In this document: in pieces, positions 10,156-50,873 of the stretch
Layout: each line of letters begins with the position of its first letter
Position numbering within the stretch: position 1 is the stretch's first letter
DNA from: an uncultured delta proteobacterium
Lineage (GTDB): Bacteria > Desulfobacterota > Binatia > Bin18
Direction: 5' to 3'
Assembly: GCA_963733195.1 (NCBI GenBank)
Contig: CAVTCR010000042.1
Location: 1 to 54,635, forward strand
Length of the DNA stretch: 54,635 nt
Notes under the pieces: model-generated
What the model saw: the letters and a program-made list of their open reading frames with translations, nothing else
Told to the model about the DNA's origin: nothing
Database searches by the model: none
Program-made: the position numbers and the translations under genes

Positions 10156-11269
10156 TTACCACATCTGCCGTAATAACCCGAGCAGTGCTTCCTCCCCACC
10201 TTGCTGTTTGTGCCACATCGCACTTTCTTCAATCACCGCATGCGCGACTGCCGGGAGTTCATTTTCCTTTGCCCCGACATCGCGCAACCGGCGAGGCACA
10301 CCAAACGAATCGATAAATGCTTCTACTGTACGAGCCGCCTCTTCCGCCACATCTTCAAGTTTGCGTCCTTCGGTCTTGATACCAAACGCCTGGGCGATCA
10401 TCGCCTGCTGGTCTAACGTCTGTGGAGCAAGAAACCGCATACAATGGGGAATGGTAATACAAGAAGTGACGCCATGGGGAACGTCCCATCGCGCGCCGAT
10501 CTGGTGACCAAAGATATGACTGAGACGAACACCGACATTGCCTAAGCCAAAAATCGACAGCCACGCAGCGACTTGACATTCGCCACGCGCATCTATGTTC
10601 TTTGGCTCCTTCACTGACAACGGCAAATTGTGCCGGAGTTTGCGAATGGCTTCCATCGCCAATGCGTCAGTCACAGGCTGAGGGTTCACTGACCACAATG
10701 CTTCAATCGCATGATCCAGTGCTTTCATCCCGGTCGATGCCCACAATTGCGTTGGTGTCGCCACAGTTATTTCGGGATCGAGGACGACGATCTTCGGCAC
10801 AATCCGTGGATCAGCACGGACTGATTTGACCCGCGTCTTTTCATCCGTTATTCCAGCAAACGGGGTAAACTCACCAGCAGAGAGGGTCGTCGTGATCGCG
10901 ATCTGCGGAATGGCATCCTGCGGGCGATCGCCTAACAATTCCAAAGCAACGATTTTGGCCGCATCGACCGGACTGCCACCACCAAAGCTAATGATGAGAT
11001 CGGCCCGGGCTTCGCGTGCGCGCGCTGCCGCTTCGCTTATGTTGCTGCTCGGCACATGTTGTTGACAACTGCTGTAGGTACCAACCCATTTATCTTCAAG
11101 CAGAGTTTCGAGCTTGCGGACCAAGTCAGTCTTCGTCGCCAGCGTCTTCCCGGTGAGAATGAACGCCCGCTCTTTGCCTAACCGTTCCATTTCTTTTGGC
11201 ACGCTGGGCGATCGAGCCGGCACCAAAAATGACTTTCTCAAGTTGGGGAAATTTGTATTCGCGAATCAT
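10156..11269 (-). CDS. iron-containing alcohol dehydrogenase family (maleylacetate reductase-like); frameshift near 5' end
   Basis: GGGSPVDAAK, TTLSAGEFT, MKALDHAIE, SHIFGH, VPHGVTS. RBS AAGGAGG and ATG at 11269 (MIREYKFPQLEKVIFG). Confidence 0.9.
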
Positions 11270-11280
11270 GTATCCTCCTT
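11068..11280. repeat. direct repeat A1: ADH 5' end plus RBS, duplicated at 18067-18280
   Basis: Near-identical sequence; the differences are mainly third-codon-position changes. Confidence 0.9.
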
Positions 11281-11292
11281 TACGCGAACTGC

Positions 11293-11499
11293 TCATCGAA
11301 CTCTTTCAGAATACACCGAGAAGATAGAAGAGGCTGTTCTTGGTATTTGATCACCAGGTATGTCTCCTACCTGTAGTTGCTGAATCACCGGTTGAATGTC
11401 AGAGCGAATATGGTGGTACTTCTTGGCCAGTCCTCGCAGGTTACGCTTAAATTCTGGCGTATATTCGACCTGTACGTATTCTCCTGGCTTACTCGGCAT
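11293..11499 (-). pseudogene. RelE/ParE-superfamily toxin, C-terminally truncated
   Basis: YTPEFKRNLRGLAKKYHHIRSDIQPVIQQLQ.GDIPGDQIP. The usual downstream KVR...GKSGGYR segment is missing. Confidence 0.7.
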
Positions 11500-11707
11500 C
11501 AATACTCTTCCACAAATCAGATATCGGTCTTGTCTCTCCTGCCAAAGCTTCCTTCCAGCCTTGCTTGAAACTCGCCTCGGCGGGCTTGAGCTCTACACTT
11601 TCACGGAACAGGCGAACAATCTGTAGGAGATTGAGTCTGTATTCTTCTGGCACTCCCTTGATTTCATGGACAAGTTGCTTTTCATAGGCTGAGAGTTTGG
11701 CACGCAT
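11489..11707 (-). CDS. antitoxin partner of the RelE-like toxin
   Basis: 72 aa ending SFKQGWKEALAGETRPISDLW. Overlaps the toxin start; RBS AAGGAG. Confidence 0.75.
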   Translation of the reverse strand: MRAKLSAYEKQLVHEIKGVPEEYRLNLLQIVRLFRESVELKPAEASFKQGWKEALAGETRPISDLWKSIDAE

Positions 11708-11757
11708 CTTCGTCTCCTTAGCGGGAAGTCTGGCTGTTGACCACTTGAAAACGTAGT

Positions 11758-11856
11758 CTACTTTACCTCTGCTTTATGTGAGGCAACAAGGGTATGGGAG
11801 CTGCACCCCATCTTATTCGTTAGCGAGCGTAAAAAGCTGATGCCGGTCCCAAAGGA
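11758..11856. repeat. direct repeat B1: copy of the 3' end of the SNF2-Mrr gene (18931-19028)
   Basis: ctactttacctctgctttatgtgaggcaacaagggtatggga...tagcgagcgtaaaaagctgatg is present at both sites. Confidence 0.88.
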
Positions 11857-12116: not shown

Positions 12117-13182
12117 TCTGCATTTATTCATCGAGTCATTGGGGTATTGAAAAGCAAAGTTGAAAAGCCAATGTTTCAACAACTCAATTCTTCAATGGCC
12201 CGAGAGCTCAATCTCTCACTGACTCAATTCTTCGATCAGCGTCTTGGCCTCTCGCAAATCCTTTGTATCAAATCCCTCAGTGAACCAGTTGTAGACCTCC
12301 GACAACATCTGGCGAGCTTCTTTCTGCTTGCCTTGTTTCTGCCACAGACCGGGCCAGACTCGTTGCTGCCTGTAGTTCCAAGGACTTTCGCCTCTTGACT
12401 ACGGGCGACATCGAGGGCCTGCCGAAAGCACTTCTCCGCTTCGCCTTGGGGGTAGGGGGTCAGGGATAGGGGATCGGTATTTTTCGACTTTGGACTCTGG
12501 ACTTTGGACTTTGGACTTTTTTCAACTTGAAACTCTACGTTTTGGCCTCCGACCTTGAGCAGCGTTAGCGACCCTTTCAGCATATACGCCCCTACCTCGT
12601 ACAGACGCTGACCAGATTTGTATATCAAGACGTAGTGCCTCGGTGAGCAGCGCTAATCCTTGATCTGATTGCCCTCGGCTATCCCATGGGCCGCGGCTAC
12701 AGCGCAGGGAAGAAAACCCGGGAGTACCAGCTACACTTCCCTTCGCGAGTGAGTGTCCATGCTGTTAACTATAGTGCGCATCAGTGTAAGCCCTTCCTCC
12801 TTGTACCCTAGCGCAATTTACGCACAGCCTTGTAAGAAAGAACTCCGAATGCTACAAATTAAATAAGAACTTGGAGCCGTGCGGATAGATAAACGCCGAT
12901 AACTCCTCCGTCCGTTCTAGCGAGTTTCCCGTACATCTTTGCGAAACTGATGGACTGGGCAACAAGCCGTAGCGCAGTAGCAAAGCTATGGGGGTGTGAG
13001 ATCTGTCTAGCCAGAGCGAGCGCTTCGTGAACCCTCTGAAGGGCCTGCTCGGGATAGCCTAGAACAATGCCAGAGACACCAGGCGAAACTAACCCCATGA
13101 AGCACAAGCAAGCACCCCAGCAAAAGTCTGATACGGCAGCGGCTGGGAATAATATAAAACGAGTACTTGCTCAAAACTCTAA

Positions 13183-14089
13183 GAGCCTATCCGGATAACT
13201 AGATTTTGCTATGCTGCTCTTTATGAGACAAACAAGCAAGAAACAGCAGCGGGCAGCGGTGAACAAAGTAACCGCAGGATTTCGGGTGTCCGATGAGTTG
13301 TGGGCAGTGCTCGCGCCCGTGCTCCCGAAGCACCGCAACACCCATCGCTTCGGCGGAGGGAAGCCACGGACCCGGATAGGCAGTGTGCCGATGCGATTTT
13401 CTACGTGCTGCGGACAGGGTGTCAGTGGGGAGCGTTGGACGCGACCGAGTTGTGTCCCTATTCCACGGCGCATGATCGGTTTCAAGCCTGGGTAGCCGCC
13501 GGGGTTTTTCTGAAGTTGTGGAAAGCCGGGGTGGAACAGTTCGATGATTTGAAGGGGATCGATTGGAACTGGTTGAGAATGGATGGAGCGATGACCAAAG
13601 CGCCGCTGGGAGGGGAAAAAAACCGGTCCCAACCCGACGGACCGCGCCAAACACGGCGTGAAACGCAGCCTGCTGACCGAAGCCCATGGGGTCCCGATCG
13701 GCTTGGCTATTGACGGCGCCAATCGGCATGACATGAAGTTGGTCAAACAAACCATGAAGAGCATGGTATTGAAACGCCCCGCCCGACCAAGAAACGCCCA
13801 CAGGGCATGTGTATGGACAAAGGATATGACTACGAGGAAGTACGCGAGATGCTGACAGGAGTTTGGCTTCACGGCCCACATTCGCTCACGGGGCGAAGAA
13901 GCGCAAGAAGATCAAACGGCACGCAGCTTTAAAGCAAGACGATGGGTGGTGGAGCGTACACATAGTTGGATGAATCGCTTTCGGCGCATCTTAATCGCTG
14001 GGACAAGACGGCCGGAGAACTATCTTGCCTTCTGCATTTTGCCTGTGCCCTAATCGCGTTCCGCGCAGCAGGGTTATTCGGATAGGCTC
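13183..14089 (+). mobile_element. IS5-family insertion sequence (~0.9 kb)
   Basis: Terminal inverted repeats GAGCCTATCCGGATAAC / GTTATTCGGATAGGCTC, flanked by TAA and TCA. Confidence 0.9.
13223..14085 (+). CDS. IS5-family transposase (frameshifted)
   Basis: SDELW, AIFYVLRTGCQW, STAHDRFQAW, a GGGGAAAAAAA slippery site at ~13612, GANRHD, DKGYD, RWVVERTHSWMNRFRR. Confidence 0.9.
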
Positions 14090-16301
14090 TCAAAGTACAG
14101 AACAGCGGGATCGCCTGCGCGAGATGCATCTATCCGAGAAGCCCTAGATTGCTTAAGGATGAAGCAAGATGAAGGAGTCGATCTCGCCACCTTCTACACG
14201 CTTTATTATACTCTGATCGCGCGAGCTTGTAGAGTATAGCACTTCGCAGGATGGGAAATAGCTGAAGGGATTTCTTCTACTTTAGTACTCGGTTTGAATG
14301 CTTTGATAGTATACTCTTTGTCCTTCAAGTGCGATAGAACTTACGGGTGGCCATAAACGCCAAGCCCAGCGGGATCTGTAAGTTCGAACTCTTGGCGGAT
14401 GGCGTTCGACCGTTTCCGGGAGCGTTTTGAGTAACTCTAGATCCTTTGCTGAGGTGGCTGATAGCTTCTGGATATTGGCACGAGCGCTGTATGGCATTCT
14501 CGCCTGCGTGCTGCAGATAGAGGATTGCCCTGTCATAGAGGCCGTCCTTGCTCAAAATGCACTGGCCAGTTCTGCGGCAATCTCTTTAGGCCCGGTCGCC
14601 GTAGGCTTGTTCTTTTCGCTTCCCTATCCGCAGATGCCATTGTTGCCGTTGTCCCACGCTCACCTGTTCGTGCCAAAACTCTTGATACAACGCATGCAGA
14701 AAACCATACCGCGCCGCGTATGTCCCATCCGGCCATTCACTTATCCCCGCAAGCCGCAGAAACTGCTGCTGCTCCACTAGCCGACTACAGTGCCTCTCGA
14801 CTTGGGTCGTTTCGGTCTCCAAGGCCGCCGCTACTGACGCTGCCGAGAACTCCAAGCCCGCGAGACTCGCCGCTTCTAACACTCGGTGTTCCTCACTCCC
14901 CAACCGGTCCTGCTGTCGTGTCAGCACCTGCTGGACACTCTCGGGCGTCCACGTCTCCAGCTCAGCTCCGTCTCCGAGCATGGCCCACAGGCCGTCGTCG
15001 GCTTGCACGAGGACCTCGCTCTGTACCAGCTCCTGCACCAGCGTCATCAGAAAGAGCGGATTGCCATCCGAGCGGCGATAGAGGACCTGGGCCAACCGAG
15101 TCGGGAAGACGCTCTGGGGAAAGCGCTGGGCAAGGTAGTCCTCCACCGCGGCTTCGCTGAGCCGAGTCACTGATAGTTCGTGTGCCCGCTGATGCGCGTA
15201 GAGGTCGTTGGTCAACGGCTTGAGGGGATGATTGTCTGCGAGCATTTCCACCGGTCGGTACGTGCTCACGATGAGTAACCGAGCAGGCTCGCGTCGTCGC
15301 GCGAGCAACGACAGCAGCTCTAACGTCGAGGTATCACTCCAGTGTATATCCTCCAGCCACAACACTAGCGGACGCTCGGCAGTAACAACGTCCATCGCCT
15401 CACCCATCTCTCGTAGCATTCGCTCGCGCATCACGCCTTGGGTCTGTCTTTGTAATGCTTCGAGATCCACCGCGGACAGGAGTGTCGGCATCTGCACCAA
15501 CCACGTCGGCGCACGTTCACGGAGCACGGCAATCAGCCGTTCCCCCCCAGGCTCGCGACACAGTCGTCCCAGCGCTTCTAGGATCGGCATGTACGGTTCA
15601 CCGGGGCCGTACTGCTCGATACACTGGCCGTGGGCAAAGCTAGGGAGCTAGGAGTCTGGGGGTAGAGCTGGGAGCAATGGAGAAGAGGTGCTTATTGCTC
15701 TTTGCTCCGTGCTCCGTGCTCCGTGCTCTGAGCGATAAACGCTTCGACGAGCGTGGTCTTGCCAATCCCTGGCTCGCCCGTGACGAAGACGATTTGGCGC
15801 TCGCCGTTCAGTGTTTTACCTAACCATAAGTGAAGTTGCGCGAGTTCGGTTTCACGACCGACCAGAACGGGGACTGGGCGTTGGGGGTTAGGGGCTAGGT
15901 TTGGGGCTTTGACACTTCGGACGTGGAAGTTTCCGACTACTGCCTACGGACTGCTGACTACTGGGTACTTCGCAATGAAGCGATAGCCGCGCCGATGCAC
16001 CGTCACGATAAATCGTGGCGTCTGGCGATCATCTCCTAGGGCACGGCGCAGCTCCTGCACACAAACCCCTGGCGCGACATCACTCACGGCGGTCTCGGCC
16101 CAGACGGCATCACAGGAGCGCCTCCTTCGTCACGAGTTGATTGGCGTGTTCCAGTAAATAGCGCAACACGGCAAAGGTTTTCTGTCTGAGGGGAATCTCC
16201 TGCGTATTGCGCCACAACTGCTCGTTGACCAGATCGAGACGAAACGGCGAGAAGCAAAGATCGTTCTCTGAATTCATGCCTCCCTTTACCACGTTTACGG
16301 A

Positions 16302-17252: not shown

Positions 17253-17737
17253 GAGTCCTAAGGGGTCCTACTCCTCATTCGAGTTGCTAGAGTTCTCTAT
17301 TCCCACGTGCTCAAAGGCCTCGGAGGTTTATTAGAATTCCTCTAGACCAGGATACACAACCGCTAAAGGATTTCCTATATCACCAAGTACCCAAGTACCT
17401 CCAAATCCCAAGGACTTGTTACCATCACATGGCAATAAGTCCCTTGAGTGAACGACAGTCTGCACCTGCACTGATCCCGCGTTGACCGTAACAACAATGG
17501 CACGGATATTTGGGGCACGTACTGCCGCGGCAAGCAGCCAGCGTTACTACAAGCGCATGCTGCCAGTCCAAAGTATTCATCCGCTGTGAGCGGTTTAACG
17601 TAATAATGAGGATTTCATAGGTAATAGCGTATTGTATGACTTGTAGCGCCATCGCCGCTGAATACTATCCTCTCAGTATAATGGCAACAAGATCGCGCAT
17701 CCAGAAGACAAGTGGGTCTCTTATTAACTCACCAGAC

Positions 17738-18066
17738 TAAAAAGCAGATGGCGGTCCCAGATGGTAAAGTCTCGCTCTTTGGGAAAAGCAATGGTAAGCG
17801 CAGTGAATAAGCTGGGACAAAGCAAGACCCTGCGAGCACCCGACAATAGTTTCGGTAGTGCGCCGTTCAGTGCAAGCACCACTTCGGAACTGCAATAGGG
17901 GAGGCATGGTTTTTACAATGAATGTACAGGATCAGCTCTACTCCCACGTCATTGAAAAGGCTAGCAATGAGGTCACTGCCGCTTTCGCGTGTCATAGGCC
18001 TGCTTTCCACTTGCAACACTTTGACGCTCTAAGAGTCGCTGGACATACAGTCTCAAACGCCACGTC
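17738..18066 (-). pseudogene. degenerate second copy of the Mrr domain (matches ~19003-19330)
   Basis: Shared blocks ggtagtgcgccgttcag, gaggcatggtttttaca, tgaatgtacaggatcag, gtcgctggacata and gtctcaaac. Confidence 0.75.
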
Positions 18067-18268
18067 ACTGCTGTAGGTACCAACCCATTTGTCCTCAAGA
18101 AGAGTTTCGAGCTTGCGGACCAAGTCAGTCTTCGTCGCCAGCGTCTTTCCCGGTGAGAATGAGCGCCCGCTCTTTGCCTAACCGTTCCATTTCTTTCGGC
18201 ACCTTGGCGATCGAGCCTGCACCAAAAATGACTTTCTCAAGTTGGGGAAATTTGTATTCGCGAATCAT
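18067..18268 (-). pseudogene. 5' fragment of Fe-ADH (repeat A2)
   Basis: MIREYKFPQLEKVIFGAGSIAKVPKEMERLGKERA... stops abruptly after KWVGTYSS and joins the Mrr copy. Confidence 0.85.
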
Positions 18269-18328
18269 AAAGTCCTCCTTATATTTCTCGCCGCATGGTG
18301 CGCTCGCTACAGGTCGATTTATTTTCAC

Positions 18329-18596
18329 TCAACCTGCTTGTTGTCTCGCTTTCTCAATTAAGCCTAACTCATAGTCAATTCGCTCTGCGAGCCACCGCTT
18401 CGCGAGTTCCTCAGCACTGCTGGTTCCGTGGAACAGCGCGAGAGTATTGAGCCGTTTTGCCAGAGTGGGAGTAAGCCGAATCACAGGAGGGCGAACTACG
18501 CTGGTAAAACCTTCGACGCGCTCCCACAGCTCAGGTCGATCTGTCTCTTTTCGAAGGCTTTCTACTCGCTTTCTTAGAGGGTCGTTTTAATTTCAT
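18329..18596 (-). CDS. CopG/RHH-type antitoxin (BrnA-like; one frameshift)
   Basis: IRLTPTLAKRLNTLALFHGTSSAEELAKRWLAERI. Starts 3 bp after the BrnT-like stop. Confidence 0.65.
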
Positions 18597-18599
18597 ACT

Positions 18600-18891
18600 C
18601 TATCCCAAAGGCCAAGCCGTGATCACTCGCACCAAGGCTGTCGTCCGTCCAGCACCAGTCCGGTGACGTTCTCGGATGAAAAAGATCACGTTGAGCCTCC
18701 TCCCGGTATCAGTTCTACCAATAAGTCGATACGTTGGGTATTGTCGCTGTTTCCGTTTGTTACGATAGACTTCGTGATTATTAAAGAAACACTCCTCGCA
18801 CTCCCATTCGGTAACATCTATGTCCTTCAATCTCGACAAGGTTGTTGCTGTCCCATGCAAACTCAATCTCTGCAAATTTGGTTAAGTCCAC
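18600..18891 (-). CDS. brnT: BrnT-family toxin (one frameshift)
   Basis: EFAWDSNN..I..H.V...E.EECFFN, YRLIGRTDTGRRLNVIF, VRVITAW. Confidence 0.75.
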
Positions 18892-18930: not shown

Positions 18931-21180
18931 CTACTTTACCTCTGCTTTATGTGAGGCAACAAGGGTATGGGAACGGCACCCCATCTCATTCATTAGCGAG
19001 CGTAAAAAGCTGATGGCGGTCCCAGAGGGTAAGGTCTCGCTCTTTGGCAAAAGCAATCGTACTCGCAGTGAATCCGCTTGGACAAACCAACACCCCACGA
19101 GCACCCGACAATTGCTTCGGTAGTGCGCCGTTCAGCGCACGCGCGACTTCCACACCAACAGGTGAGGCATGGTTTTTACATTGAATGTACAGGATCAGTT
19201 CTCACTCCCACCTCATCGACACGGCGTGCAATGAGGTCAATGCCACGATCGCGTGTAATAGGCGTGGTTTCCACTTGCCATCCTTTGCGCTCCAACAGTC
19301 GCTGGACATAGGTCTCAAACTCCACACCACTCATGTCGGCGTAATTCGCTGGCGGCTCGCTGCTGCGACGCACCGATGCCGTCGGCGCCGGAGGGGTCAG
19401 TCCAAACAGGCCGAACAACTCCTCGGTCGTCAGCTTAGACTGAATATCAATGGACACATCATCAACCACTTCGTCAAAAAGCAACTGTTTCTGCTGCAAG
19501 ACGTGCTCGATCCGCTCTTCGATTGTGTTTTCGCAGGTGTAGACGTACACGTTCGCCGGAAAGACTTGACCAAACCGATGGCTGCGATCCTCTGCTTGAT
19601 GGCCAATGGCGGGATTCCACCAGCGGTCGAAATGGAAGACATATGACGCTTCTTGTAGGTTCAGCCCCTGACCACCGGCGCGCAACGACAGGATCAACAC
19701 TTTATGTGTAGGGTCCGCCTTGAAAGCTTTGATCGTCGTCTCTTTCTGTGCAGTCGGCATATCTCCCGTGTACAGCAGTGGTTGAAACGGCTTCAACCTC
19801 GCGGTAATCGCCCGACCACCATAACGGTCGTCAGCGAATTGCGAGAAAATCAGCGCACGGTGTTCTTCAGCAGCTAAGGTACGTAAGCGCTCGCGGATGT
19901 CGTCGAGTTTTGCCGAGCGTCCAGTCAGCGGACAAAAATTGCAAATCTGCTTGAGCCGGGTCACCAGTTCCAATACGTTCTCGACACGCGCCGCTTCGCC
20001 CTTCTCGCGTAAATGGAAGATGCCTTCTCGTTCTGCACGGTCATAGCTTTCACGCTGTGGCCCTTCGAGCTTGAGTGCGATGCGGCTGACAATCTTCGGT
20101 GGCAATTGTGGCAGCACATCGGCTTTCTTACGGCGCAGTTGCACCTGCGCTTGTCTTTCGCGCAGCTTCGGCCCAGGGAGTAACCGTTGTGGTGTTTCCC
20201 CCTCTGCCAGTGGTGTAACAAATTCGAGAATGGACGCGAGATCATCCACGCTGTTTTCTAATGGTGTCCCGGCCAGCGCCCAGGCACGGCGTCGATTCAG
20301 TCGTTTACATTTCGCACTGATCTCAGCCTCACGATTTTTGATCGTCTGCGCTTCGTCGAGAATCACCACATCCCAGACTCGGCGTCGCGGCGGCGAATGG
20401 AGATTTTCAGTAAAATCGGCACGGAAGGTTTCGTAGCTGACCAGGTAGACATGCGCTGCCGTCGTCCACTGCCAGGAGCGTTCACTCGCCGGACCGCGAA
20501 TAGTCGAGACCCGTAACTCCGGCGCCCAGCGCTGGAACTCTTTGCGCCATTGATCGATGAGACCTGCACGCACAATAAGCAGGGCAGACTCAATGCTGCG
20601 TTGCAAGGTTAACAATCGGAGCGCTGCGATCGTCTGAATTGTTTTCCCCAGTCCCATGTCATCGGCGAGCAACAGTGCGTCGTGTGACATGAGCGCATGA
20701 ATGCCTTCCAGTTGGTAGGCAAACAAAGTTCCGGGCCATTCCAAGGGACCATTCTTTGTCAGCAACAACTCCGTGGGAGGTTGCATGAGATACGCCAGCC
20801 GTTTCCATAGTGGGACTTGTGGTGGCGTCTGTGGTCGCTCGTTCGTGAAGAAATGGTGATCTGCCGTTGATGGTTTAGAGAAAGGAAGCCGAGGCGTCGG
20901 CTCGGTCATCAACAATACGCCCGCCAGATTTACACTGCCGTTTTCTGCCTTGGCAGCGGGCACTAGGTCCACGGTGAGATTCGTCGCAGGAGTGATAAAT
21001 GATAGAACTGGAAGTGATATTCTTGCAGTGAGCCGCGAGGGAGCACTAAGGCAGTGTCAGTCGCCGGGCATGGCGTTCAGCGATGCGGAGCTCGTCGGCG
21101 AAAAACGCGCAGCCAGCGAGCACGTGGTGTCTCTTCGCCATTGCTGTTTTGCCACCAGGAATTCCCTCACCCGTAGTCAT
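18931..21180 (-). CDS. SNF2-family helicase fused to a C-terminal Mrr-like restriction endonuclease (frameshifts near both ends)
   Basis: Helicase motifs LADDMGLGKT, ILDEAQ, GTPLEN, LIFSQF, GGQGLNL, DRWWNPA, EDRSHRFGQ. Mrr domain SGVEFETYVQRLL...DRGIDLIA...IQCK, continuing in another frame to TAG at 18931-18933. Confidence 0.9.
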
Positions 21181-21238
21181 TTACCGCTTTTCTGACGTTG
21201 GTTCGTTGGAGTCTGCTCGCAAACGATACGCTGTTTCA

Positions 21239-21427
21239 TCAGGCTTTCGCCTTTAACTGTCGAAGGATTTCTAGCGCCGCTTCGAGCGTAATCTCCGTAG
21301 TTGCTCGCGTCTTATTGACTTCCTCGTGGATCTTGAGCAGCGTTCGCGCTTGGATCGCGAATGACACCGCTTGTGAAATACCCCAAGCAACCAACAGCGC
21401 GGCGATAAGAGCGTGCATGGAATCCAT
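21239..21427 (-). CDS. small single-TM, coiled-coil protein (62 aa)
   Basis: GGAGG RBS before MDSMHALIAALLVAWGISQAVSFAIQA. Confidence 0.55.
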   Translation of the reverse strand: MDSMHALIAALLVAWGISQAVSFAIQARTLLKIHEEVNKTRATTEITLEAALEILRQLKAKA

Positions 21428-21501
21428 AGTGCCTCCATAGTTTTGCCATATATTTGTCTGATCGTAGCAGCCGGAAGCGCAGACACGTCGCAAGAGCATT
21501 C

Positions 21502-22053
21502 CTACGTCATCTTATTATCTTTTGTCCGATACACCTCTCGCAACCCAACGGAGGCACGATCAAACGGCTCCAGCAACAACCCTCTCGCAGCCACAAGTTG
21601 TAGAAGCCGCAGTTCGATCGAATCTTCTGCCGGTTTTCCTGGAAACCAAAACGCATGTACTGGTTCAGAAGTCTGAACAACGTCTTCGGTCTCGGTACTG
21701 GCATGAGGCAACGTTTCACGACTCGGAGCAAGGCGACAGACTGGAATGGACACCTGGATATCCTGGCAAAACAATTCGCTGCCGACTTCTTTGGCAAGAC
21801 AGAGCAACAGCCGTGGCGTTCGTGGACAGAGAGAGAAGAGCGAGGCAGTCAGTTTCCTGGCGGCGTTTCGTCGCAGGTCATCTTGTCGCCATAAAAAGGT
21901 TTGGGGTGTATCGATACGGTTGTAAGTAAATTCTAGCGGTTCACCACGGGCATTGAGCAGAAATAGCGCACCCAGATACCCTGCACTGTCAACCAAGGGC
22001 TCGATTTTGAGATAACCAACTGCTCCCAGTTCATCGAGGTCGTCAGCTGTCAC
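21502..22053 (-). CDS. hypothetical alpha/beta protein (183 aa)
   Basis: Intact ORF with VGYLKI...GYLGALFLLNARGEPLEF and C-terminal LLEPFDRA..GLRE. Co-oriented with SNF2-Mrr. Confidence 0.75.
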   Translation of the reverse strand: MTADDLDELGAVGYLKIEPLVDSAGYLGALFLLNARGEPLEFTYNRIDTPQTFLWRQDDLRRNAARKLTASLFSLCPRTPRLLLCLAKEVGSELFCQDIQVSIPVCRLAPSRETLPHASTETEDVVQTSEPVHAFWFPGKPAEDSIELRLLQLVAARGLLLEPFDRASVGLREVYRTKDNKMT

Positions 22054-22099
22054 GATACGGAATGGGCATGGGTTAATTTCACCAGGTGCAGGCGGCTAA

Positions 22100-22680
22100 G
22101 ACAGATAAGGGAACGAACAATTCCTTGAATTCTTGTCACGATCGACAGTTAAACGTGCAGCCGGCTTTGCGGAGACGTGCCAGCTTCTCCATCAGCTTCA
22201 TATCAAGCGGCTGAAAGCACTGTTCCCCAAACTGCTGACACGGCGGCTCTGGCAACCGCTTTTTCCAATCAACTTTAAGCTCACGTCCTGAGGAAAATCA
22301 AGCCACTGACATACTCGTCATCACGCCACTCTCGTTTACAGAAATAGGCATTCAACGAAGCGAGTGATAAGCCAAGGTTCCGCTGTTTTGTCCAATCACT
22401 GTCCGCACAAGGTTGGCACTAAGAGATCGAAGGCGGTAATCATAAATCTCATCGACATTCGCTTGACCACAAACGATATGCAAAGGTCTCCTACCAACAA
22501 ATCCAAGAACTGAGCAACTACGCCCTCTAGCTGTCTCGATCCGGATAGTCTTCAATGACCCTGCCGTTCTCTGACAGCTTGTTCGATAACATCAGGTCTA
22601 TCCTAAGTCGGCGAAGCTTTTCAGTTTCAGTAAGAAGTTTTCTAGCTTTCTTGAACGAATCCTTCTCTTTAATCATTCGA
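22100..22680 (-). pseudogene. degraded DUF4258 toxin / YgiT-type zinc-finger pair
   Basis: GRSCSVLGFVGRRPLHIVCG (DUF4258-like), followed by CQQFGEQCF...MEKL (YgiT-like). Very noisy sequence. Confidence 0.45.
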
Positions 22681-22682
22681 TC

Positions 22683-25600
22683 TCACTCAATTCCTCCAAT
22701 CAGCGTCTTCGCCTCTTGCAAATCTTTGGTGTCAAATCCTTCGGTGAACCAATTGTAGATCTCAGACAACAGCTTGTGAGCTTCTTCGTCTTGCCTTGTT
22801 GTTGCCAGAGGCGGGCGAGGCTCGTGGCGGCACGGAGTTCGAGTGACTTCGCCTGTTGGCGACGAGCAATTTCGATGGCCTTGTGGAAACACGCTTCGGC
22901 TTCGCCTTGGGGGTCGGGGATCAGGGGTCGGGGATCGGTATCTTTCGACTTGGACTCTGACTTTGACCTTGGACTTTTTTCAACTTGACTTGAACTTGAA
23001 CCTTGAACTGTTGCAGCATAAGCGTTCCCTTGAGCCGATACAGCTCTGCCTCGTAGAAACGCTCCCCAGTTTTGTCCACCATAGCCAGCGCCTCGGCCAG
23101 CACCTCAACCCTTCTTCGGCCTGTCCTACTTTTCTATAGCCTCGGCCAGCAAAGCAAGAAAATACGGCCGCCACAGCTCTGCCCCTGTAGCCCGATAGGC
23201 GGCCAGCCCCTGGTGTATCTGCGCAATCCCTTCCTCTCCTTGTCCTTGCTCCACCAATGCCCAGCCCCTTATGGATAGTTCCCCAGGCCACCCAGAGCGG
23301 AAACCCCTGCTCGGTCGCGAGTACACATCAGCGCCTCTGCCTGCTCTTGTGTGGCCTGCCCCTCCCGGCGGAGCTGGTGGAGCATGGCAGCAAAGCCAAG
23401 GCATAAGCCAGGCTAAAGGGGTGAGACAGCTCCTGGGCAAGGCTGAGCGCTCCTGGCTTCTCTTCAGGGCTTGGTCTGGATAGCCAAGAAACCATAGGGT
23501 CAAGGCCGCATAGGAAGGCAATCCACCCCCGGGTCCAGCCGCTAGCCAGAGGATGAGCGGGTGCTGCTGGGGATCATAGAGGGCAATCGCCCTGCTCCAA
23601 GTGCTCCCGGGCCGGGACAAACTCTCCCAGGTAGTACAACGTCTACCCTAGCACATTGTGGGCTCCAGAGGAGACGTCGGGTCTTGCACGCTCTGGGCCA
23701 GGCGAAGAGCTGCTCCCCCAGCTCACGTGCTGTCTGTACTCCGCCCGCACGGAATAAAATGCCCAGAGTCCACACAGCACAGGGAAGAGCTGAGGAGTCT
23801 CTCCTATCTGCTGGCACAGCTCTCGCGCCCGGGTATAGACTTTTTCCACCTCTGGGGCCGCATAGCCTTTGGTAGCCATCAATGCAGCACCCAGGGCGAG
23901 TTGTAGGGTGAGTTCTTGCTGGGTGCGTTCAGGAGTGTCCGGCAGGGTCTTGAGCAACTCCAGTCCTTTGGTGAGGTGATCGATCGCTTCCACATTGGCC
24001 GAACGCTGAGCTGGCTCGCTCCCCTGCCTGCTGCCAATAGGGAATAGCCTGCTCTATCAGCTCAGCCTCGGTGTAGTGATGCGCAACTAACTCGGGTTGG
24101 GTTTCGACGGTCTGCGGAAATTGCGCCTCCAGCGTTGTCGCTATCTGTCGGTGATATTGTTGACGTTTACTCTTGAGTAAGGACTGATAGGCCGTGTCCT
24201 GAATGAGGGCGTGTTTGAACAGATAGCGAGCTTGAGGAGGGATGCCACTCTGATAGACGAGTTCCGATTCGACTAATTGCTGTAGTCCTCGCTGCAATGT
24301 TTCCTCATTCAGCGGAGAGACCGCTTGGAGTAGGTCATAGTTGAATTCACGTCCGATCGTAGCGCCTAGCTGCGCGATTTCTTTAGTTGGCCCGAGACGA
24401 TCAAGCCGCGCCATGAGCGAATCTTGTAAGCGTTGCGGGAATCCCCAGCGGTATGGACGCCGCGGCATGCTGCCAGACCAAGACTCTATGGATTACAGAC
24501 TCCAAAGTTTTCGTTAATTCTTCAATAAACAGCGGCACGCCGTCAGTCTTACTCACAATCTGTTGTATGACTTCTTGTGGCAGTGTCTTACCACCTGTCA
24601 CCTTCTCCACCATTATTTCTACGTGGCTTCGCCCCAGACGACTCAAAGTGAGCTGACTGAGATAGGAATGTGCGCCCCACGGCGGCGTAAATTCAGGTCG
24701 AAACGTTAGTACCACCAATATCCGCTTCGTCGGTACTTGAGCCAGAAACAGAGTGAGCAGTTCTAAGGTAGACGGATCGGCCCAGTGCAGGTCTTCCCAT
24801 GCGTATATTACTGGATGTTCCCTGGCTTCTGCACTGAGCCAGGCAACGAGAGTCTCGTGGGTTTTCTCTTTTTGTTTCTGGGGACTCAAAGTGAGTACGG
24901 GGTACCCTTCTGGCTGAGGCACCGACAACAACGCGGCCAGCAGCGGTATCGCCTCTAACAGTAGGGGCACAGCACGCCGTGCCCCTACTTCGAGCTTACG
25001 CAGGTTCTCTTCGGGGTTATCCTCGCTCTGAAATCCCAGCACTCGCTGTACGTGCTCAATCACCGGCGAGAGCGCACTGTTTTGTGCATACGGTGAGCAG
25101 CGCAACTCCAAACACGGCGAACCTTCGAGCGCAACCGATGCTTTGAGCGCTTCAACGAGTCGCGATTTGCCAATGCCTGGCTCACCGCTGAGGAGAACAA
25201 CCTGTCCTTCTCCCTCTTTCACCCGCGCCCAACGCTCTTGTAAAAGTCCATACTCATGGTCGCGACCAATGAGTGGTGTCAGCCCTTTGCGTACCACTAC
25301 TTGAAATCGACTCTGGGCTTCACTCTCCTTACCTACGCGATAAAGCGTTAGTGGCGTCGAGACTCCTTTGAGTTCAGGCTGTCCACGATTCTCACAAGTA
25401 AACAACCCCTCGACCAGGCGATATGTCGCTGCACTGATCATGACTTCGTCAGGGTTGGCTTGCCCTTGTATTCGTGCAGCAATGTTCGGTGTCTCGCCTA
25501 GCGCCAGCATCTCGCGCTTCTCGCTATTGCCGATCTCACCAATTACCACTAACCCGGTGTGAATGCCGATGCGGAGTTGTAGTGGTTTTCCCTTCTTCCC

Positions 25601-26157
25601 CTCACCCTGTCCTCCTGTGACTACGCGCAGGACAGGCTCTCCCACAAGGGGAGAGGGGACCTGCTTTTGTATGGCAGTGATTATTTCCAACCCCGCGCGC
25701 ACGGCCCGCACGGCATCATTTTCATGCGCCACGGGATAGCCGAAGTACACGAGCAGTCCATCACCCAGATACTGCGCGATATAACCGCTAAAGCGTTCGA
25801 TAATCGTCGCGCTCGTCTGTTGATAAGCACGTACCACCTCGCGGTATTCTTCCGGATCGAGTTGTTCAGAGAGTACGGTGGAGCCTACAAGATCACAGAA
25901 CATCACAGTGAGTTGACGGCGTTCGCCGGCACTCGGGGTGCTAGGTGTTGGGTGCTGGGGGTTAGGGAATGAGGGCTGGGAACTGACAACTGACAACTGA
26001 GAGCTGACAACTAGAGATACGCCGCACTCGCCGCAAAACTTGAATCGTGGCGGATTCTCTGCGCCGCAATTGGCACAGCGGTGCACAGCGGACTTCCACA
26101 CTCGCCACAGAATTTCTGTCCTTCAGAGCTATCGGAGCCACAATTCGCGCAGCGCAT
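22683..26157 (-). CDS. double zinc ribbon + class III nucleotidyl cyclase + AAA ATPase + TPR protein (frameshifted)
   Basis: CANCG/FCGECG repeats, [38 protein letters not shown], Walker [32 protein letters not shown], and C-terminal [11 protein letters not shown]. Confidence 0.9.
24961..24988. repeat. GTAG REP palindrome in frame inside the cyclase gene
   Basis: GTAGGGGCAC-AGCACGCC-GTGCCCCTAC, translated as VGARRAVPL. Confidence 0.75.
25597..25659. repeat. composite REP-like palindrome in frame inside the cyclase domain
   Basis: cccctcaccctgtcctc[ctgtgactacgcgcaggacagg]ctctcccacaaggggagagggga, translated as [20 protein letters not shown]. Confidence 0.65.
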
Positions 26158-26166
26158 ACGAGGTTC

Positions 26167-26571
26167 TTACCTTGGCGGAAATACGCCCTCAAGTACAAGC
26201 ATCCGCCGCAGCCGTATTCGATAGGGCAAATTCACTGCAAGAACATCGACCGTTACCCGACCAACTGGCGTGCGCCCATGCAACTCGGCACCTTGCCATT
26301 CGAAATGTTCCTCCCACTTATCTTGGCGGGGATGGAATAGTCGCACTACTTCACCGGTCTCAGGATCTACCCCGGCAACATTCGGCCCTTTATGGTTGTT
26401 ACACGAATAACACGCAAGCGCGAGGTTATGGAGTTCATCAGTCCCGTGATGCTTGCGAGCAATAATATGATCAATTTGGAAGGTCAGTAGATCGTATTGT
26501 TGTGGCATCTGGCAGTATTCGCAAATCGATGCTGCCCGCTGCCACACTTGATGAACGAGCGATTGTTCCAT
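26167..26571 (-). CDS. HNH endonuclease
   Basis: CEYC...IDHII...NLALACYSCNNHKG, LFHPRQDKWEEHF. Confidence 0.9.
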   Translation of the reverse strand: MEQSLVHQVWQRAASICEYCQMPQQYDLLTFQIDHIIARKHHGTDELHNLALACYSCNNHKGPNVAGVDPETGEVVRLFHPRQDKWEEHFEWQGAELHGRTPVGRVTVDVLAVNLPYRIRLRRMLVLEGVFPPR

Positions 26572-26578
26572 TCATTAT

Positions 26579-26860
26579 TCAGGTACTGGGGCTTCGTTGT
26601 TTGAGGGACATTCGCGCCTTTGATCGGAGTAACGACAAAAAATGACCTACTCGCTCGTAGCAATCCATCTCGGACTGTTCTTCCTCGGTCAGGACGCCTG
26701 CACGGGCTTTCTCAGCCAACAGTTCCATACGTTCACGGTCTTCTTTCGTGAAATCGAACGAGAGAATGATTCTGGCAGTTTCAGGAGGAAATGTCGGTTC
26801 TTCCGGAGCGATAACCCGAGAGAGAATTTCAGCCTCATTAGTGGTTGCCTCAGCATTCAT
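26579..26860 (-). CDS. helical hypothetical protein, partner of the HNH (antitoxin-like)
   Basis: 93 aa with RMELLAEKARAGVLTEEEQSEMDCYE; ends 7 bp upstream of the HNH start. Confidence 0.75.
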   Translation of the reverse strand: MNAEATTNEAEILSRVIAPEEPTFPPETARIILSFDFTKEDRERMELLAEKARAGVLTEEEQSEMDCYERVGHFLSLLRSKARMSLKQRSPST

Positions 26861-26879
26861 AAAAGCACCATATCACCCT

Positions 26880-28127
26880 TTAATCCGATTTTTCAGTCTC
26901 TTCCCCATTCGCAGTCTCAAGAGCAGCTTCTTCGCTGTAGTTCTGCTCCAAAGTCGTCGCCGTCAATTCCACCGTATAATTGGGATCAAGGCGTTTGAGG
27001 TCCCATTCGGTGATCCAGCGTTTCACGTACTCGCGCATGCTAGTGATCCCCAACCGTTCCACAGTGAGTGGCGGAGGTTGCCAATTGTATGCTTCAGCAT
27101 GGATCTGGCGAATTTTCTCACAGGTTTGCTGGATCGTTTGGGTGTCGGGTGTTTTGAGACGGGCTTTGTCTCGGTTAATTACTCGCATGCCCCGATCGGC
27201 GTGTTTCGCAAGGTCCTCTCTGCCTTTCTCTCGCAGCCTTTGTGGGAGGGCTTCGAGATCATGCTTTTCTTCCAGAATGTAACTCTCAAAGTTCGACATA
27301 ATGGCAAAGACAGTGGTCAACCCTGGAGCCTGTTGCTCTGGCATCTTGCCCATCCACCGTAGCAGGTCGGCATACGACCGCGCACGTTGTAGCCAGGAGT
27401 AACGGCCAATTAGTTCCAGTTCATCGACGAGCAGTACCCATCCTGCGTAGCCTGCCGCAACAATCAAGCGCGGGACGAACATGAAACGCTGCAGTGCCAT
27501 GTCTTTATGAGTGATGGTTTCGATCTTATAGGTTGCACGCTCACCGCACGATTTCAGATGTCTGCGCAGTTCGTCAGCTTCGAGCGAACCGCCAGACCAA
27601 AACGAGACCAGACGATTGCGCAGTTCCATATCCATGCCCAAGCGCTTAAACAAAAACAGTGTGGCTGCGAACCGGGAGTTCATCCCAGAGCCGGGATTAT
27701 GTACCCAGGCGTTGAGTTCGTTGTACGTCTCACTCGTCGTATCTAAGTGCGCTGCCACTTCAGCTAACGCAGCGCCACGCTTCCCTGGCGCTATGGCCGA
27801 GCGCATCGCCGCACGATAGAATTTCACGGGATCGTAGAGTGGCGTCTCCTTACTAATCACCACGCGGCTACAGACAAAACGTTCTTCAAGTGCGACATGT
27901 TGTAGATATTCCAATAGATGCGATTTCCCTGCGCCAAAGTCACCAGCAATGAGCATTCCTGCGGCTTGTTCTCCTATTTTCGCGCCTTCTTTTGCCGCTT
28001 GGAGCTGTGCACGAAACTGTTCCTCAATCGCCAGTTGTTCACAGCCCAACGCTTGCACCGCATCGCGGCTGGGCACACCCGCACGGAGAGCCTCAATGGC
28101 ACGACGGCTGACAATCTGGTCGCTCAT
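26880..28127 (-). CDS. DUF2791 / BrxD-like P-loop ATPase
   Basis: RRAIEALRAGVP N-terminus, Walker A GDFGAGKSH, ISKETPL, AGYAGWVLLVDELE Walker B. Confidence 0.85.
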   Translation of the reverse strand: MSDQIVSRRAIEALRAGVPSRDAVQALGCEQLAIEEQFRAQLQAAKEGAKIGEQAAGMLIAGDFGAGKSHLLEYLQHVALEERFVCSRVVISKETPLYDPVKFYRAAMRSAIAPGKRGAALAEVAAHLDTTSETYNELNAWVHNPGSGMNSRFAATLFLFKRLGMDMELRNRLVSFWSGGSLEADELRRHLKSCGERATYKIETITHKDMALQRFMFVPRLIVAAGYAGWVLLVDELELIGRYSWLQRARSYADLLRWMGKMPEQQAPGLTTVFAIMSNFESYILEEKHDLEALPQRLREKGREDLAKHADRGMRVINRDKARLKTPDTQTIQQTCEKIRQIHAEAYNWQPPPLTVERLGITSMREYVKRWITEWDLKRLDPNYTVELTATTLEQNYSEEAALETANGEETEKSD

Positions 28128-29128
28128 GTTGCTGACTCCTGCACCGGTCGGACATTAGGCCCCGCACTCGACGAGAGGCGAAGTAACGTAGAAAACGGAT
28201 TCACACGCTGTTTATCATAGATCTCATCCCAGATACGCATGCGTAGCGCATCGTAGCTGTAGACCCCACGGCGCTCGTCAGGATGCAAAAACGCAGGTGG
28301 CGCAACGACGACCAAGAAGCAAAATTCCAGCTCATCAGTCGCATCGATAAACTGGCGTAAGACTTCGTAGGTGTCCAACGTCATCGCCAGGGTGTAATAG
28401 CGACTGTCATCCTGCTGTTCTTTGGCTCTCGGGCGCTGTACCAAACAACGAGAGAGATCAAGCATCAATACCAGGCCACTTTTGCCAGCAAGATGCAGCC
28501 AATATGAAAGGGACGAGAGCAGGTGGCGCGCATTGTCACGCGCCACTTTCTGAAAAATCAGTGCTGGCTTGAGCTCCACCAAGCGGCGCAAGCGACCGGA
28601 TAGCCATTCCTTGATCACTTCGGCAGGCACAGGACTCACACCATCACCACCAAACTGCGCTTGGCACAGGCGAATCATAGCCAAGCGAAATTCCTGGTTC
28701 ATACGGTAATCGTGCAGGAGACGCTTTTCGGGCAGGGCGAGCAACTCCTGTTGCAGCAGTCGTGCATCGCGTTGATTCAGGGTAGCGAGTTTTTGCAAAG
28801 TGAAATCAAAACGGTCGGATGGAAGAGTCAGGCCTTGCTCGCTCAGTATACGAGAGACAAAGGAGAACGACAGCTCATCCCAATCAATCTGCTGGGCGAT
28901 CTCGTGGAACACATGGTCAATCATATAGACGCGAGTTGTAGCGGCATCGACCCAAGTAAACTGATAGCCTTCGGCTTCGGCAACGCCGCGCAGTCCTTGT
29001 CTCAGGCCGGCATGATTAATCTCTTCCGTCGGCACAATGAACTTCACTGCCGCACCACCGCCACGAATAAAACTTTGTAAATATTCGCGCTGGGCGATAG
29101 CCAGCCACTCGGCGGGACGGATGAACAT
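28124..29128 (-). CDS. DUF2791 / BrxD-like protein with degenerate Walker motifs
   Basis: GGAGG RBS and ATG at 29128. GGGAAVKF leader, WLSG, AGKSGLVLMLD, EVLRQFID, GVYSYDALRMRI. No GxxGxGK. Stop overlaps the next ATG (ATGA). Confidence 0.75.
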   Translation of the reverse strand: MFIRPAEWLAIAQREYLQSFIRGGGAAVKFIVPTEEINHAGLRQGLRGVAEAEGYQFTWVDAATTRVYMIDHVFHEIAQQIDWDELSFSFVSRILSEQGLTLPSDRFDFTLQKLATLNQRDARLLQQELLALPEKRLLHDYRMNQEFRLAMIRLCQAQFGGDGVSPVPAEVIKEWLSGRLRRLVELKPALIFQKVARDNARHLLSSLSYWLHLAGKSGLVLMLDLSRCLVQRPRAKEQQDDSRYYTLAMTLDTYEVLRQFIDATDELEFCFLVVVAPPAFLHPDERRGVYSYDALRMRIWDEIYDKQRVNPFSTLLRLSSSAGPNVRPVQESAT

Positions 29129-29180
29129 GGATGAGCCTCCTAAAATGAAACTCATAATATTGGGACCTGCGAGCAACAGT

Positions 29181-29280
29181 CCCGCTCGTGCTGAGCGTAG
29201 CCTGAAAGGCGGAGTCGAAGCATATACTGCTCTATGGGCGTTGTCCCTCGACTTCGCTGCGCTACGCTCAGGATGAACGA
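29181..29280. repeat. inverted REP-like pair
   Basis: cgtgctgagcgtagc...agtcgaag versus ctcgactt...gctacgctcaggatg. Confidence 0.65.
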
Positions 29281-29292
29281 AGGTCCTTCTCG

Positions 29293-30129
29293 TCAAGCAT
29301 GAGAGCGGATCTGCCAGCCTCTTGGATCAGTCCTCACCCACGCAAACGAAATCCCATAGTAGGTCTTCGCCCGACCGTCTTTTGTCACAAGATGAATGAC
29401 TTTACTCGCTGCCTCATTACCCCTGGCAGGATGAAAACTCACCACTGCACCATCCCGCGCAGATGAGACGCCACTCTGATCCAGCAAGTACAGATCGCGA
29501 GCGAATTCCTGGCGTGCATACTCCTTGGCTTGTCCTGGCAGTAGCGTGAGGAGATTGTAGATTTCTACCAGCGGGATAATCGTCGCTGAGTCACGGCGGT
29601 CCTTGTCGCGGGTCTTCACTGCCGTGGAATACGCCTCATACAACGACTCCAGAAATGCTTCGGATTTGAAGCGCACCGGTTTATTTTGCAGCTCTTGCAG
29701 ATGGGACACTAACACCGATGGACGCAGCCGTCGTTCTCTCGTCTTGTCGATCGCCACCGACCGGTCGTTCGGCAGGACACGGATGAGCGACGGATAACAG
29801 TACAGTCGTTCATCGCGTTCATAAATGTGCACGCCAGCATTCGAGGCTGTCGCCAGCACCTCTGCAACAAATGAGCCGTCAGACAAGTAGACTTCCTCAT
29901 CAAAGCGCCAACCGCTTTTCGCAGTAGTGAATTGTTGCTCTAGCTCAGTAATTGTTTGCCCCGCAGTTTCAATGGCGCGGCGCAGTTCGCGCAGGCTTCC
30001 CGCTTGGGCAGCAGCACGGAATTTTTTGAGCGCCCGAAGCGCAGCAGTCGCAGCTTTACATGCAGCGTCAGCATCAGCCTCGGTCTTGCTCAACGCTTGC
30101 TCGAGAGTACCGTTGTTATTGGTGGCCAT
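29293..30129 (-). CDS. hypothetical protein (N-terminal coiled coil, possible C-terminal winged helix)
   Basis: Intact 278-aa ORF with an Ala-rich heptad N-terminus, RERRLRPS, and IPLVEIYNLLTLLP..YARQEFARDLYLL. First gene of the ATPase operon. Confidence 0.8.
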   Translation of the reverse strand: MATNNNGTLEQALSKTEADADAACKAATAALRALKKFRAAAQAGSLRELRRAIETAGQTITELEQQFTTAKSGWRFDEEVYLSDGSFVAEVLATASNAGVHIYERDERLYCYPSLIRVLPNDRSVAIDKTRERRLRPSVLVSHLQELQNKPVRFKSEAFLESLYEAYSTAVKTRDKDRRDSATIIPLVEIYNLLTLLPGQAKEYARQEFARDLYLLDQSGVSSARDGAVVSFHPARGNEAASKVIHLVTKDGRAKTYYGISFAWVRTDPRGWQIRSHA

Positions 30130-30306
30130 TTTTCTTCATTCACCTCTTCGCTGGTTAATGTCTTGCGAGCATCAAGTCCCCTTAGCGAATTTTCATCTCT
30201 CGCGTCAGTACCAAGCGGCGATTATTTTGCCGGGTCGTACAGTTTGTCAATCGGCTTGCTCTGGCCATCATTCTTCGCCACAGTGCGTTGGCGGGAGGCA
30301 TCAGGC

Positions 30307-31655: not shown

Positions 31656-32012
31656 CTATTCCTTAAAATCGTGCAGCCAGATGATTTGGTTGCGTACCTC
31701 CTTCGCGGTGTAGCGGCTCAGGTAGCGGAGAGTCCTGCGCAATAGCTCTCGCAAGGGGACTTGATTGGAGACGATGATACCATAGTGCTCTTTCCCTTGG
31801 GTTTGGTATTTTCGGTCAAGAAGCAGATAGTCACGAATGTTATGGGTGAACACGGCTCGTCCCTGGCTTACCGCATACGACAACTGCTCCGGATCACTCT
31901 TCCCTACACGATTGACCTCCAATACGTGGACGGCGTCATATCCACGTTGGCGCAAGATTGCCGCTAGCAGGGGTCGGACATCTTCATCCAAGAACAACTT
32001 GGTTTGAGCCAT
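31656..32012 (-). CDS. DUF5615 PIN-like (VapC45-type) toxin
   Basis: LFLDEDV, GYDAVHV, GKSDPEQL, FTHNIRDY, HYGII. Confidence 0.85.
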   Translation of the reverse strand: MAQTKLFLDEDVRPLLAAILRQRGYDAVHVLEVNRVGKSDPEQLSYAVSQGRAVFTHNIRDYLLLDRKYQTQGKEHYGIIVSNQVPLRELLRRTLRYLSRYTAKEVRNQIIWLHDFKE

Positions 32013-32296
32013 CAGTTGGCTCTTTCTGTTCTCAGCCTCTCCTCGGTGTTCTCCCGCAGCTCCCGTTCAATCTCCTCTTGGTGATCATAATAATAAGACA
32101 GCGCATCATAAACCTGGGCTAGTGTCAGGTTGGAGAATTCCTTCAGGAGTTCCTCAGGGGAAAGCCCTTGCTTGAGCACGTAGCTGACGACAGAGCGTAC
32201 GGGAAACTTTGTTCCCTTGATGATAGGACTCCCTCCACAATAGTCTTTGCGAGAGACAACATAGGGATGTGTCGATTTCGCGACTGCTCCTGCCAT
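32012..32296 (-). CDS. DUF433 antitoxin
   Basis: CGGSPIIKGTKFPV, SPEEL, LTLAQVYDALSYYYDH. TGATG coupling to the toxin. Confidence 0.9.
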   Translation of the reverse strand: MAGAVAKSTHPYVVSRKDYCGGSPIIKGTKFPVRSVVSYVLKQGLSPEELLKEFSNLTLAQVYDALSYYYDHQEEIERELRENTEERLRTERAN

Positions 32297-50862: not shown

Positions 50863-50873
50863 CAATGTGTCTT

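Follow-up and report, generated by a model that had tools for sequence, protein, structure and literature searches.

Can two ATPases of the BrxD type and an SNF2-Mrr protein make up a defence system of their own, without a methylase? The question is raised by a run of minus-strand genes on contig CAVTCR010000042.1 (assembly GCA_963733195.1) of an uncultured bacterium of the Binatia (Desulfobacterota); the whole stretch analysed, 54,635 nucleotides, is called the window below. An initial annotation of positions 18931..30129 had proposed that these co-oriented genes form an anti-phage system. The run is real, with open reading frames (ORFs) of 278 amino acids (aa) (29293-30129), 390 aa (28124-29296), 415 aa (26880-28127), 93 and 134 aa (26167-26860), 183 aa (21502-22053) and 62 aa (peptide E, 21239-21427), followed by an SNF2 ORF of 598 aa with a frameshifted Mrr tail (18986-20972), but the start of B and the lengths of A, D and F had to be corrected. 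The conserved core consists of five genes in the order A-B-C-D-F:

29293..30129, minus strand: core gene A, no Pfam family
28124..29128, minus strand: core gene B, predicted inactive AAA+ protein of the BrxD/SngB family, 334 aa, PF10923
26880..28127, minus strand: core gene C, predicted active ATPase of the BrxD/SngB family, 415 aa, PF10923
21502..22071, minus strand: core gene D, no named family, length about 188 aa; in three genomes it forms the N-terminal part of a fusion with SNF2
18986..21181, minus strand: core gene F, SNF2 translocase carrying Mrr_cat at its C-terminus, about 740 aa where intact
30221..30250, minus strand: sigma-70-like promoter, TTGACA-18-AATAAT, 11 of 12 consensus matches, about 90 nt upstream of A
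29192..29270, no strand: intergenic palindrome between A and B, with 10-bp perfect arms

The promoter is the best of seven sites in the region, where 6.7 are expected by chance, and is therefore a consensus match only.

Gene order was followed in 84 loci found with A (4 from genomes and the best 80 of 583 confirmed metagenome matches), all of them relatives of A at 51-90% identity only. Dereplication at 95% identity left 68 loci, and counts use only those long enough for the gene concerned. A was followed by B in 50 of 51 dereplicated loci, by C in 35 of 36, by D in 24 of 26 and by SNF2 in 20 of 22; the misses are a locus with A alone (L011), a locus in which D is cut to an N-terminal remnant (L058) and a contig that ends after insertions (L004). 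The ATPase trio (A, B and C) thus co-occurs with D and SNF2-Mrr elsewhere, and many loci share this order. In 27 of 30 loci C directly adjoins D, and the genes interleaved between them in the window, an HNH pair, a cyclase-AAA-TPR gene and a decayed toxin-antitoxin (TA) pair, are therefore later insertions, as had been supposed. Peptide E, a 62-aa transmembrane protein that had been counted with the system, occurs in only 1 of the 30 loci showing both D and F (L021), and additionally in L004 and the window; this occurrence rules it out as a core gene, and it has no Pfam match. No conserved gene was found in intact loci beyond the five, of which F begins at the stop codon of D; uninterrupted loci such as L033, L040 and L002 measure about 5.9 kb. 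A, B, C and D are each single-copy in the source genome (G000). Pairwise identities of the five genes correlate across 19 loci (Spearman 0.76-0.90), a pattern that shared ancestry alone also yields. The five genes are one tightly packed, co-inherited unit, widespread among bacteria, of which a tandem pair was observed on one contig with about 3 kb between the cassettes (L086:3219-6443). No methylase belongs to this core, and the unit is probably a self-contained, methylase-free system against invading DNA, be it phage or plasmid.

Two diverged ATPases, an SNF2 motor and two uncharacterised families

Both B and C score above the cut-off of Pfam PF10923 (42 and 96 bits, respectively), and they had been described as twin ATPases. 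One of them appears to be dead and the other live. Walker A (GDFGxGKS) and Walker B (hhhDE) are intact in 31/31 C sequences, whereas Walker A is found in 0/29 B sequences and the DE of Walker B in none of the 29; a pair of active twins is ruled out by these motif counts. B retains an arginine finger in 29/29 sequences, within a Y-x-A-L-x-x-R motif common to BrxD and SngB, and ends before the C-terminal helical lid. In C this motif is found in 0/31 sequences. B is not a pseudogene, since it is conserved as well as C (mean identity 59% and 62%). Judged by these motifs, C is an intact ATPase and B a conserved pseudo-ATPase that retains the arginine finger. The complementary losses suggest a B:C heteromer with a shared active site, and we infer that the two may form a heteromer with one composite site, resembling the origin recognition complex (ORC). 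The finger position of C is Lys in 19 sequences and Arg in 12 of the 31, so finger donation by B alone would not be strict. Direct comparison of the B and C profiles was weak (probability 4%), and their kinship is based on PF10923 and the multiple alignment instead. B starts at 29128, where its homologues begin; its ORF in the window reads 56 codons longer because the extra codons span the A-B intergenic palindrome, which we take to be REP-like.

F combines Pfam SNF2 (PF00176, 157 bits) with Helicase_C and Mrr_cat, and the catalytic Mrr motif D..(D)L..QCK is kept in 20 ORFs. Mrr is present in 19 of the 23 loci that show the whole of F (of 25 loci of sufficient length, L011 and L004 drop out; in L084 the Mrr part is separated by a break). 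It is absent in L058, L067, L078 and L080, as well as in three genomes carrying a D-SNF2 fusion. Mrr is thus an optional C-terminal effector, and the mechanism must go beyond the earlier proposal of an ATPase complex licensing an Mrr nuclease. Against phage records F gave matches to generic SNF2 cores only. D has 492 homologues, no Pfam family and no PDB sequence match. One genus has three near-complete genomes (G324, G360 and G368) in which D is fused to SNF2, which indicates that D is functionally tied to the motor. HHalign comparison of D with five EndoV sequences gave no significant similarity (probability 0.2%, E 0.24 and 0.4); the catalytic Asp is aligned to a Leu. The single-sequence model of D was unusable (pLDDT 33), so its fold search carries no meaning.

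A has 2216 homologues in 712 clusters at 50% identity, and no credible family among the Pfam, PADLOC or NCBIfam models. Its family alignment stops at residue 263, and homologues measure about 266 aa vs the 278-aa ORF of the window. The predicted structure comprises an N-terminal helical hairpin (residues 9-73), an alpha/beta middle domain and a C-terminal winged-helix-like domain of helix-helix-helix-beta-hairpin type (AF2 model, pLDDT 94.4). Foldseek found no match in PDB or BFVD at E 0.001; these searches were swamped by the hairpin, the middle and C-terminal domains were thus barely probed, and a new fold is not claimed. The sole match of A outside its hairpin is a weak one, of residues 157-263 to the Pol III chain 7a6h_O (Z 6.1, root-mean-square deviation 3.7 over 78 residues), a subunit presumably built of winged helices. 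ESM Atlas returned only unnamed clusters. In one protein of Phytohabitans aurantiacus (P0391) family A is fused behind a region named DUF3375 in UniRef, which we take to be a Wadjet JetA-like domain; being one of two matches among 8000 scored longer candidates, the fusion is regarded as a one-off.

Relation to BREX, Shango and Zorya

The expectation that the locus would match no modelled system held, as PADLOC and NCBIfam models gave distant homologues only. The cassette resembles the BrxD-BrxHI genes of type 2 BREX in placing a PF10923 ATPase of the ORC/Cdc6 clade directly upstream of a superfamily 2 (SF2) motor, and B groups with BrxD in the a-type subfamily. C, however, scores 66 bits vs a cut-off of 350 for NCBIfam BREX_BrxD, the motor is SNF2(-Mrr) where BrxHI is Ski2/Lhr-like, and the cassette has two diverged ATPases, one of them apparently dead, as well as the extra genes A and D. 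None of BrxC/PglY, PglX and PglW was found among the scanned window genes with Pfam, PADLOC and NCBIfam models, in agreement, for BrxC and PglX, with the initial annotation. PglZ (PF08665), likewise reported there as missing, was not found in the source genome (93% complete) nor in G324 and G368, in a search that was positive in controls and, far from the cassette, in G360. BrxD-BrxHI is presented as an accessory dyad of type 2 BREX, BrxD is proposed as a loader or activator of the helicase, and the role of BrxD and SngB is still hypothesised (PMC12839542).

Shango is likewise a stand-alone, methylase-free set of a partner protein, a PF10923 ATPase and an SF2 helicase, and its anti-phage activity was reportedly described by Millman and co-workers in 2022. 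It is listed among defence systems (PMC10952713). SngA is a TerB_N/TerB/TerB_C protein, whereas A has no TerB domain in Pfam and an HHalign probability of 0.4% against SngA, which rules out A as a homologue of SngA or TerB_C. The SngB model gives 26 and 45 bits for the cassette ATPases vs 566 for a true SngB. Shango has a single SngB and a DEAD/DEAH helicase, SngC, in contrast to the dead/live pair and SNF2-Mrr of the cassette. A real Shango locus (L146) was recovered in the searches. A genome-wide TerB_N search gave no match in the source genome, but none in any control genome either, and says nothing on absence. The third relative is ZorD of type I Zorya, an SNF2 helicase with an Mrr-like nuclease and the best PADLOC match of F (220 bits). 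F scores 149 bits against NCBIfam ZorD, which has a cut-off of 1500, and measures about 740 aa vs 900-1200; ZorA, ZorB and ZorC are lacking from the cassette, and A-E gave no PADLOC Zor match. By these scores the cassette is not a member of BREX, Shango or Zorya. By analogy it would act in the manner of Shango and the BrxD-helicase dyad, its effector being similar to ZorD. No description of the gene order A-B-C-D-F was found in the full-text literature, subscription papers lying outside its coverage, and the names 'Mrr' and 'Shango' are absent from the main text of PMC12839542.

Searches with PF10923 and the C profile recovered sister cassettes composed of an A homologue, an a-type and then a b-type BrxD-type ATPase, and an Lhr-like helicase (L143:8021-13444, L144:7730-13342, L178:7000-16286, L179, L180, L181, L186). 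Their A homologues match A with HHalign probabilities of 92-95% (E 5e-8 and 7e-7) and, in five more genomes, with profile E of about 1e-10. Unlike the cassette with its dead B, they keep Walker A and B in both ATPases, and D is missing. Their motor is either a DEAD/H helicase (675-695 aa) or a fusion with an SF1 helicase that reaches 1900-2000 aa. They are likewise not named systems. Behind the sister cassette of L144 come PDC-M33-like genes and a cytosine methylase. Genome G313 has a cassette of three BrxD-type ATPases whose BrxHI-like helicase is fragmented (L145:7317-14320), adjoining a divergent methyltransferase (MTase), a specificity subunit and a NERD-kinase cluster with MADS-like matches; its A-like gene matches A only weakly (1.3%). 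Bare a/b pairs of BrxD-type ATPases without A or helicase also occur among housekeeping genes (L187:6578-9171 and L188:5602-8180), the second carrying a short N-terminal beta-rich extension.

In a phylogenetic tree the first-position ATPases (BrxD, SngB and B) are split from the last-position ones (C and kin) with SH-aLRT 94; the tree is a quick version with long branches, of which only this a/b split was used. A wider reading, which we put forward tentatively and consider possible rather than probable, is that an ancient duplication of BrxD gave subunits a (arginine finger) and b (partner), which together with A would make an ORC-like loader placing interchangeable SF2 motors on invading DNA without a methylation mark; a would then be a pure trans-activator in the present cassette.

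Distribution, neighbourhood and function

For the cassette itself the following mechanism may be envisaged. C would bind ATP, with B supplying the arginine finger in trans. A, with its coiled hairpin and winged helix, might bind DNA or an invader cue and recruit B:C, and ATP hydrolysis would load or un-inhibit D-SNF2. The latter would translocate on double-stranded DNA, which the fused Mrr would cut; versions without Mrr might block the invader by translocation and protein displacement, or use another nuclease. Self DNA could be spared by gating at the loader or by a preference of Mrr for modified DNA, without a cognate methylase.

Evidence for invading DNA as the target includes the following: the named proteins nearest to B and C (BrxD and SngB) and to F (ZorD) all act in defence, the presence of the cassette is patchy and decaying with a spread across phyla, and restriction-modification (RM) genes occur at part of the sites. 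A was found in 3/301 genomes of the phylum and in 7/151 of the class, one of the latter a weak, spurious-looking coiled-coil match; it is full-length in 3/8 genomes of genus g219. Full-length C is present in 4/401 genomes, and PF10923 was above cut-off in 0/14 control genomes. G313 keeps only A at the same site as the window and has no match to C, and G329 has frameshifted A, B and C with no D or F beside them. Close relatives of A carry the labels Ca. Binatia or Deltaproteobacteria, and source labels of cassette proteins include Nitrospirota, Bacillota and Deltaproteobacteria. A Bacillota-labelled copy is 72-75% identical (A-D) to a Deltaproteobacteria-labelled one. Members of family A reach Gemmatimonadota, Actinomycetota and Alphaproteobacteria, where A alone was looked at.

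Of 20 independent sites, 6 have RM genes no more than 10 kb away (L033, L040, L054, L058, L067 and L068). The 20 were obtained from 25 sites with at least 8 kb of flank by collapsing shared neighbours; L055, with type I RM but a short flank, and G368, with an MTase homologue at a distance of about 2 kb, were left out, and the count is a lower bound since 175 of 290 representative flank ORFs were annotated. The rough background with the same queries is 1.7% of the source genome; even at 10% expected, the binomial P is about 0.011. The association might alternatively mean that the cassette is an auxiliary module boosting or backing RM or BREX, for instance by clearing away anti-restriction proteins of the phage or, if RM is blocked, by cutting the host chromosome. 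The accessory standing of BrxD-BrxHI and the MTase-specificity-kinase cluster next to the triple-ATPase cassette of G313 would fit such a role. Most sites, however, are without adjacent RM, the RM types (I, II, III) vary by locus and PglZ was not found in the three genomes named above, so that this explanation seems quite improbable.

Further neighbours include IetA with an S8 peptidase, CARF with an ORC-CDC6-like protein, AAA_21, JetD_C, AbiE and HEPN-MNT. In L074 (7731-11303) an 862-aa ORC-CDC6-like ATPase and a CARF protein stand directly downstream of the cassette, possibly a separate defence pair. Several observations weigh against an anti-invader role. At about half of the 20 sites, the annotated neighbouring ORFs are all metabolic or housekeeping genes. 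The RM background is probably too low, being taken from one genome only with queries from positive loci, and the RM-linked loci may include several from related organisms. Conservation is fairly high in each of the five proteins (mean pairwise identity 59-69%), without the fast-evolving sensor that an arms race would predict. No A or C match was found in 72,556 plasmids and no A match in IMG/VR viral contigs. The Arg at the finger position of some C sequences and the loci without Mrr, both described above, count on the same side. As support for an anti-phage function, the gene neighbourhood is real but partial.

Part of this evidence could be accounted for by an accessory machine for DNA repair or replication restart, in which an ORC-like loader puts the SNF2 motor, optionally together with a structure-specific nuclease, on host DNA that is damaged or stalled. 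It would agree with the housekeeping neighbourhoods at many sites, with the site common to the window, L024 and G313, with the moderate and even conservation of all five genes and the dispensability of Mrr, and with an HhH-GPD glycosylase about 3 kb downstream in L015 and L018. The patchiness within a genus and the gene-by-gene decay speak against it, as do the adjacent RM, IetAS and CARF genes and the closest relatives being in BREX, Shango and Zorya. We regard a repair function as unlikely, though less so than an auxiliary role, and the anti-invader reading remains the preferred one.

Later insertions in the window and meaning of the cassette

The genes inserted into the window copy are:

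26167..26860, minus strand: 93-aa protein and HNH endonuclease, a TA-like dyad, Pfam HNH
22686..26154, minus strand: zinc ribbon-adenylate/guanylate cyclase-AAA-TPR gene, frameshifted, in at least four pieces, Pfam Guanylate_cyc and AAA_16
22352..22680, minus strand: decayed small gene pair, from its reading frames, no Pfam match
21239..21427, minus strand: peptide E, 62 aa, hydrophobic N-terminus, in the window, L004 and L021 only

HNH, cyclase and TA genes are ruled out as parts of the system, being multi-copy in the genome and absent from most loci. HNH homologues occur at 13 loci in the source genome, and the cyclase-AAA-TPR protein, with matches at 104 loci, belongs to a very large family of paralogues; the pieces of the inserted copy span 22686-26101 as ORFs, and further genes of cyclase/AAA-TPR type lie at about 12200-16300 and 50865-53981 of the window. 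L004 has an intact 1124-aa cyclase at the same site without the HNH pair, and L024 a cyclase stump and a PemK gene. The contig of a related strain joins 22075 to 22697, without the decayed pair, which we assume to be a DUF4258-like toxin/antitoxin.

TA pairs inside and beside the site (L018, L021, L024 and the window) recall a selfish, addiction-type cassette that would kill cells losing or disturbing it, its nuclease being checked by A-D, without benefit in defence. Such a cassette appears very unlikely, as versions lacking the nuclease persist intact, no carriage by plasmids or viruses was found and F was lost in G313 and G329 without sign of retention. Two more small-gene pairs were observed in the window: ORFs of 91 and 51 aa without Pfam match directly after F (18329-18875), which to us resemble a BrnT-type toxin-antitoxin pair, and a DUF433 and DUF5615 toxin-antitoxin pair upstream of a cyclase-family gene (31656-32296).

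D and F of the window are broken by single-base indels. An extra base at 22048 hides the first codons of D, while F is frameshifted near 21157-21050 and at 19203, its N-terminus lying at about 21181. Contigs of about 98%-identical strains lack the extra bases at 19203 and 22048, and a full-length D 99% identical to that of the window exists; the breaks near 21050-21160 are not comparable, as these strains differ there. Assembly error is probably the cause rather than decay, since the neighbouring cyclase gene is frameshifted too. No sequencing run with this exact strain was found (best share 0.46), and a single 269-nt contig on peptide E in one RNA run is no evidence of expression. Downstream, the Mrr tail of F is duplicated at 17738-18077 (83%) and 11757-11855 (94%), and the start of the Fe-alcohol dehydrogenase (ADH) gene is copied at about 18067-18280 (94%), the duplicated regions of the F 3' end and ADH start being 11067-11855 and 17724-18280. 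In L024 F is directly followed by ADH, which suggests that several kb were inserted in the window with duplicated flanks.

The cassette adds two uncharacterised protein families, A with its 712 clusters and D, and is a candidate methylase-independent defence system missed by the PADLOC and NCBIfam models applied here in uncultured bacteria of soil, sediment and aquifer type. It appears to assign nucleotide binding to C and the arginine finger to B, and couples the two with a motor that carries a nuclease of its own. If the superfamily suggested above is true, its motors would comprise SNF2, SNF2-Mrr, Lhr-like helicases and the Lhr-SF1 fusion, and subunit a as a pure trans-activator would parallel eukaryotic ORC. 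It would then represent a new class of anti-invader machine, and the cassette would offer the simplest way to settle the function of BrxD and SngB.

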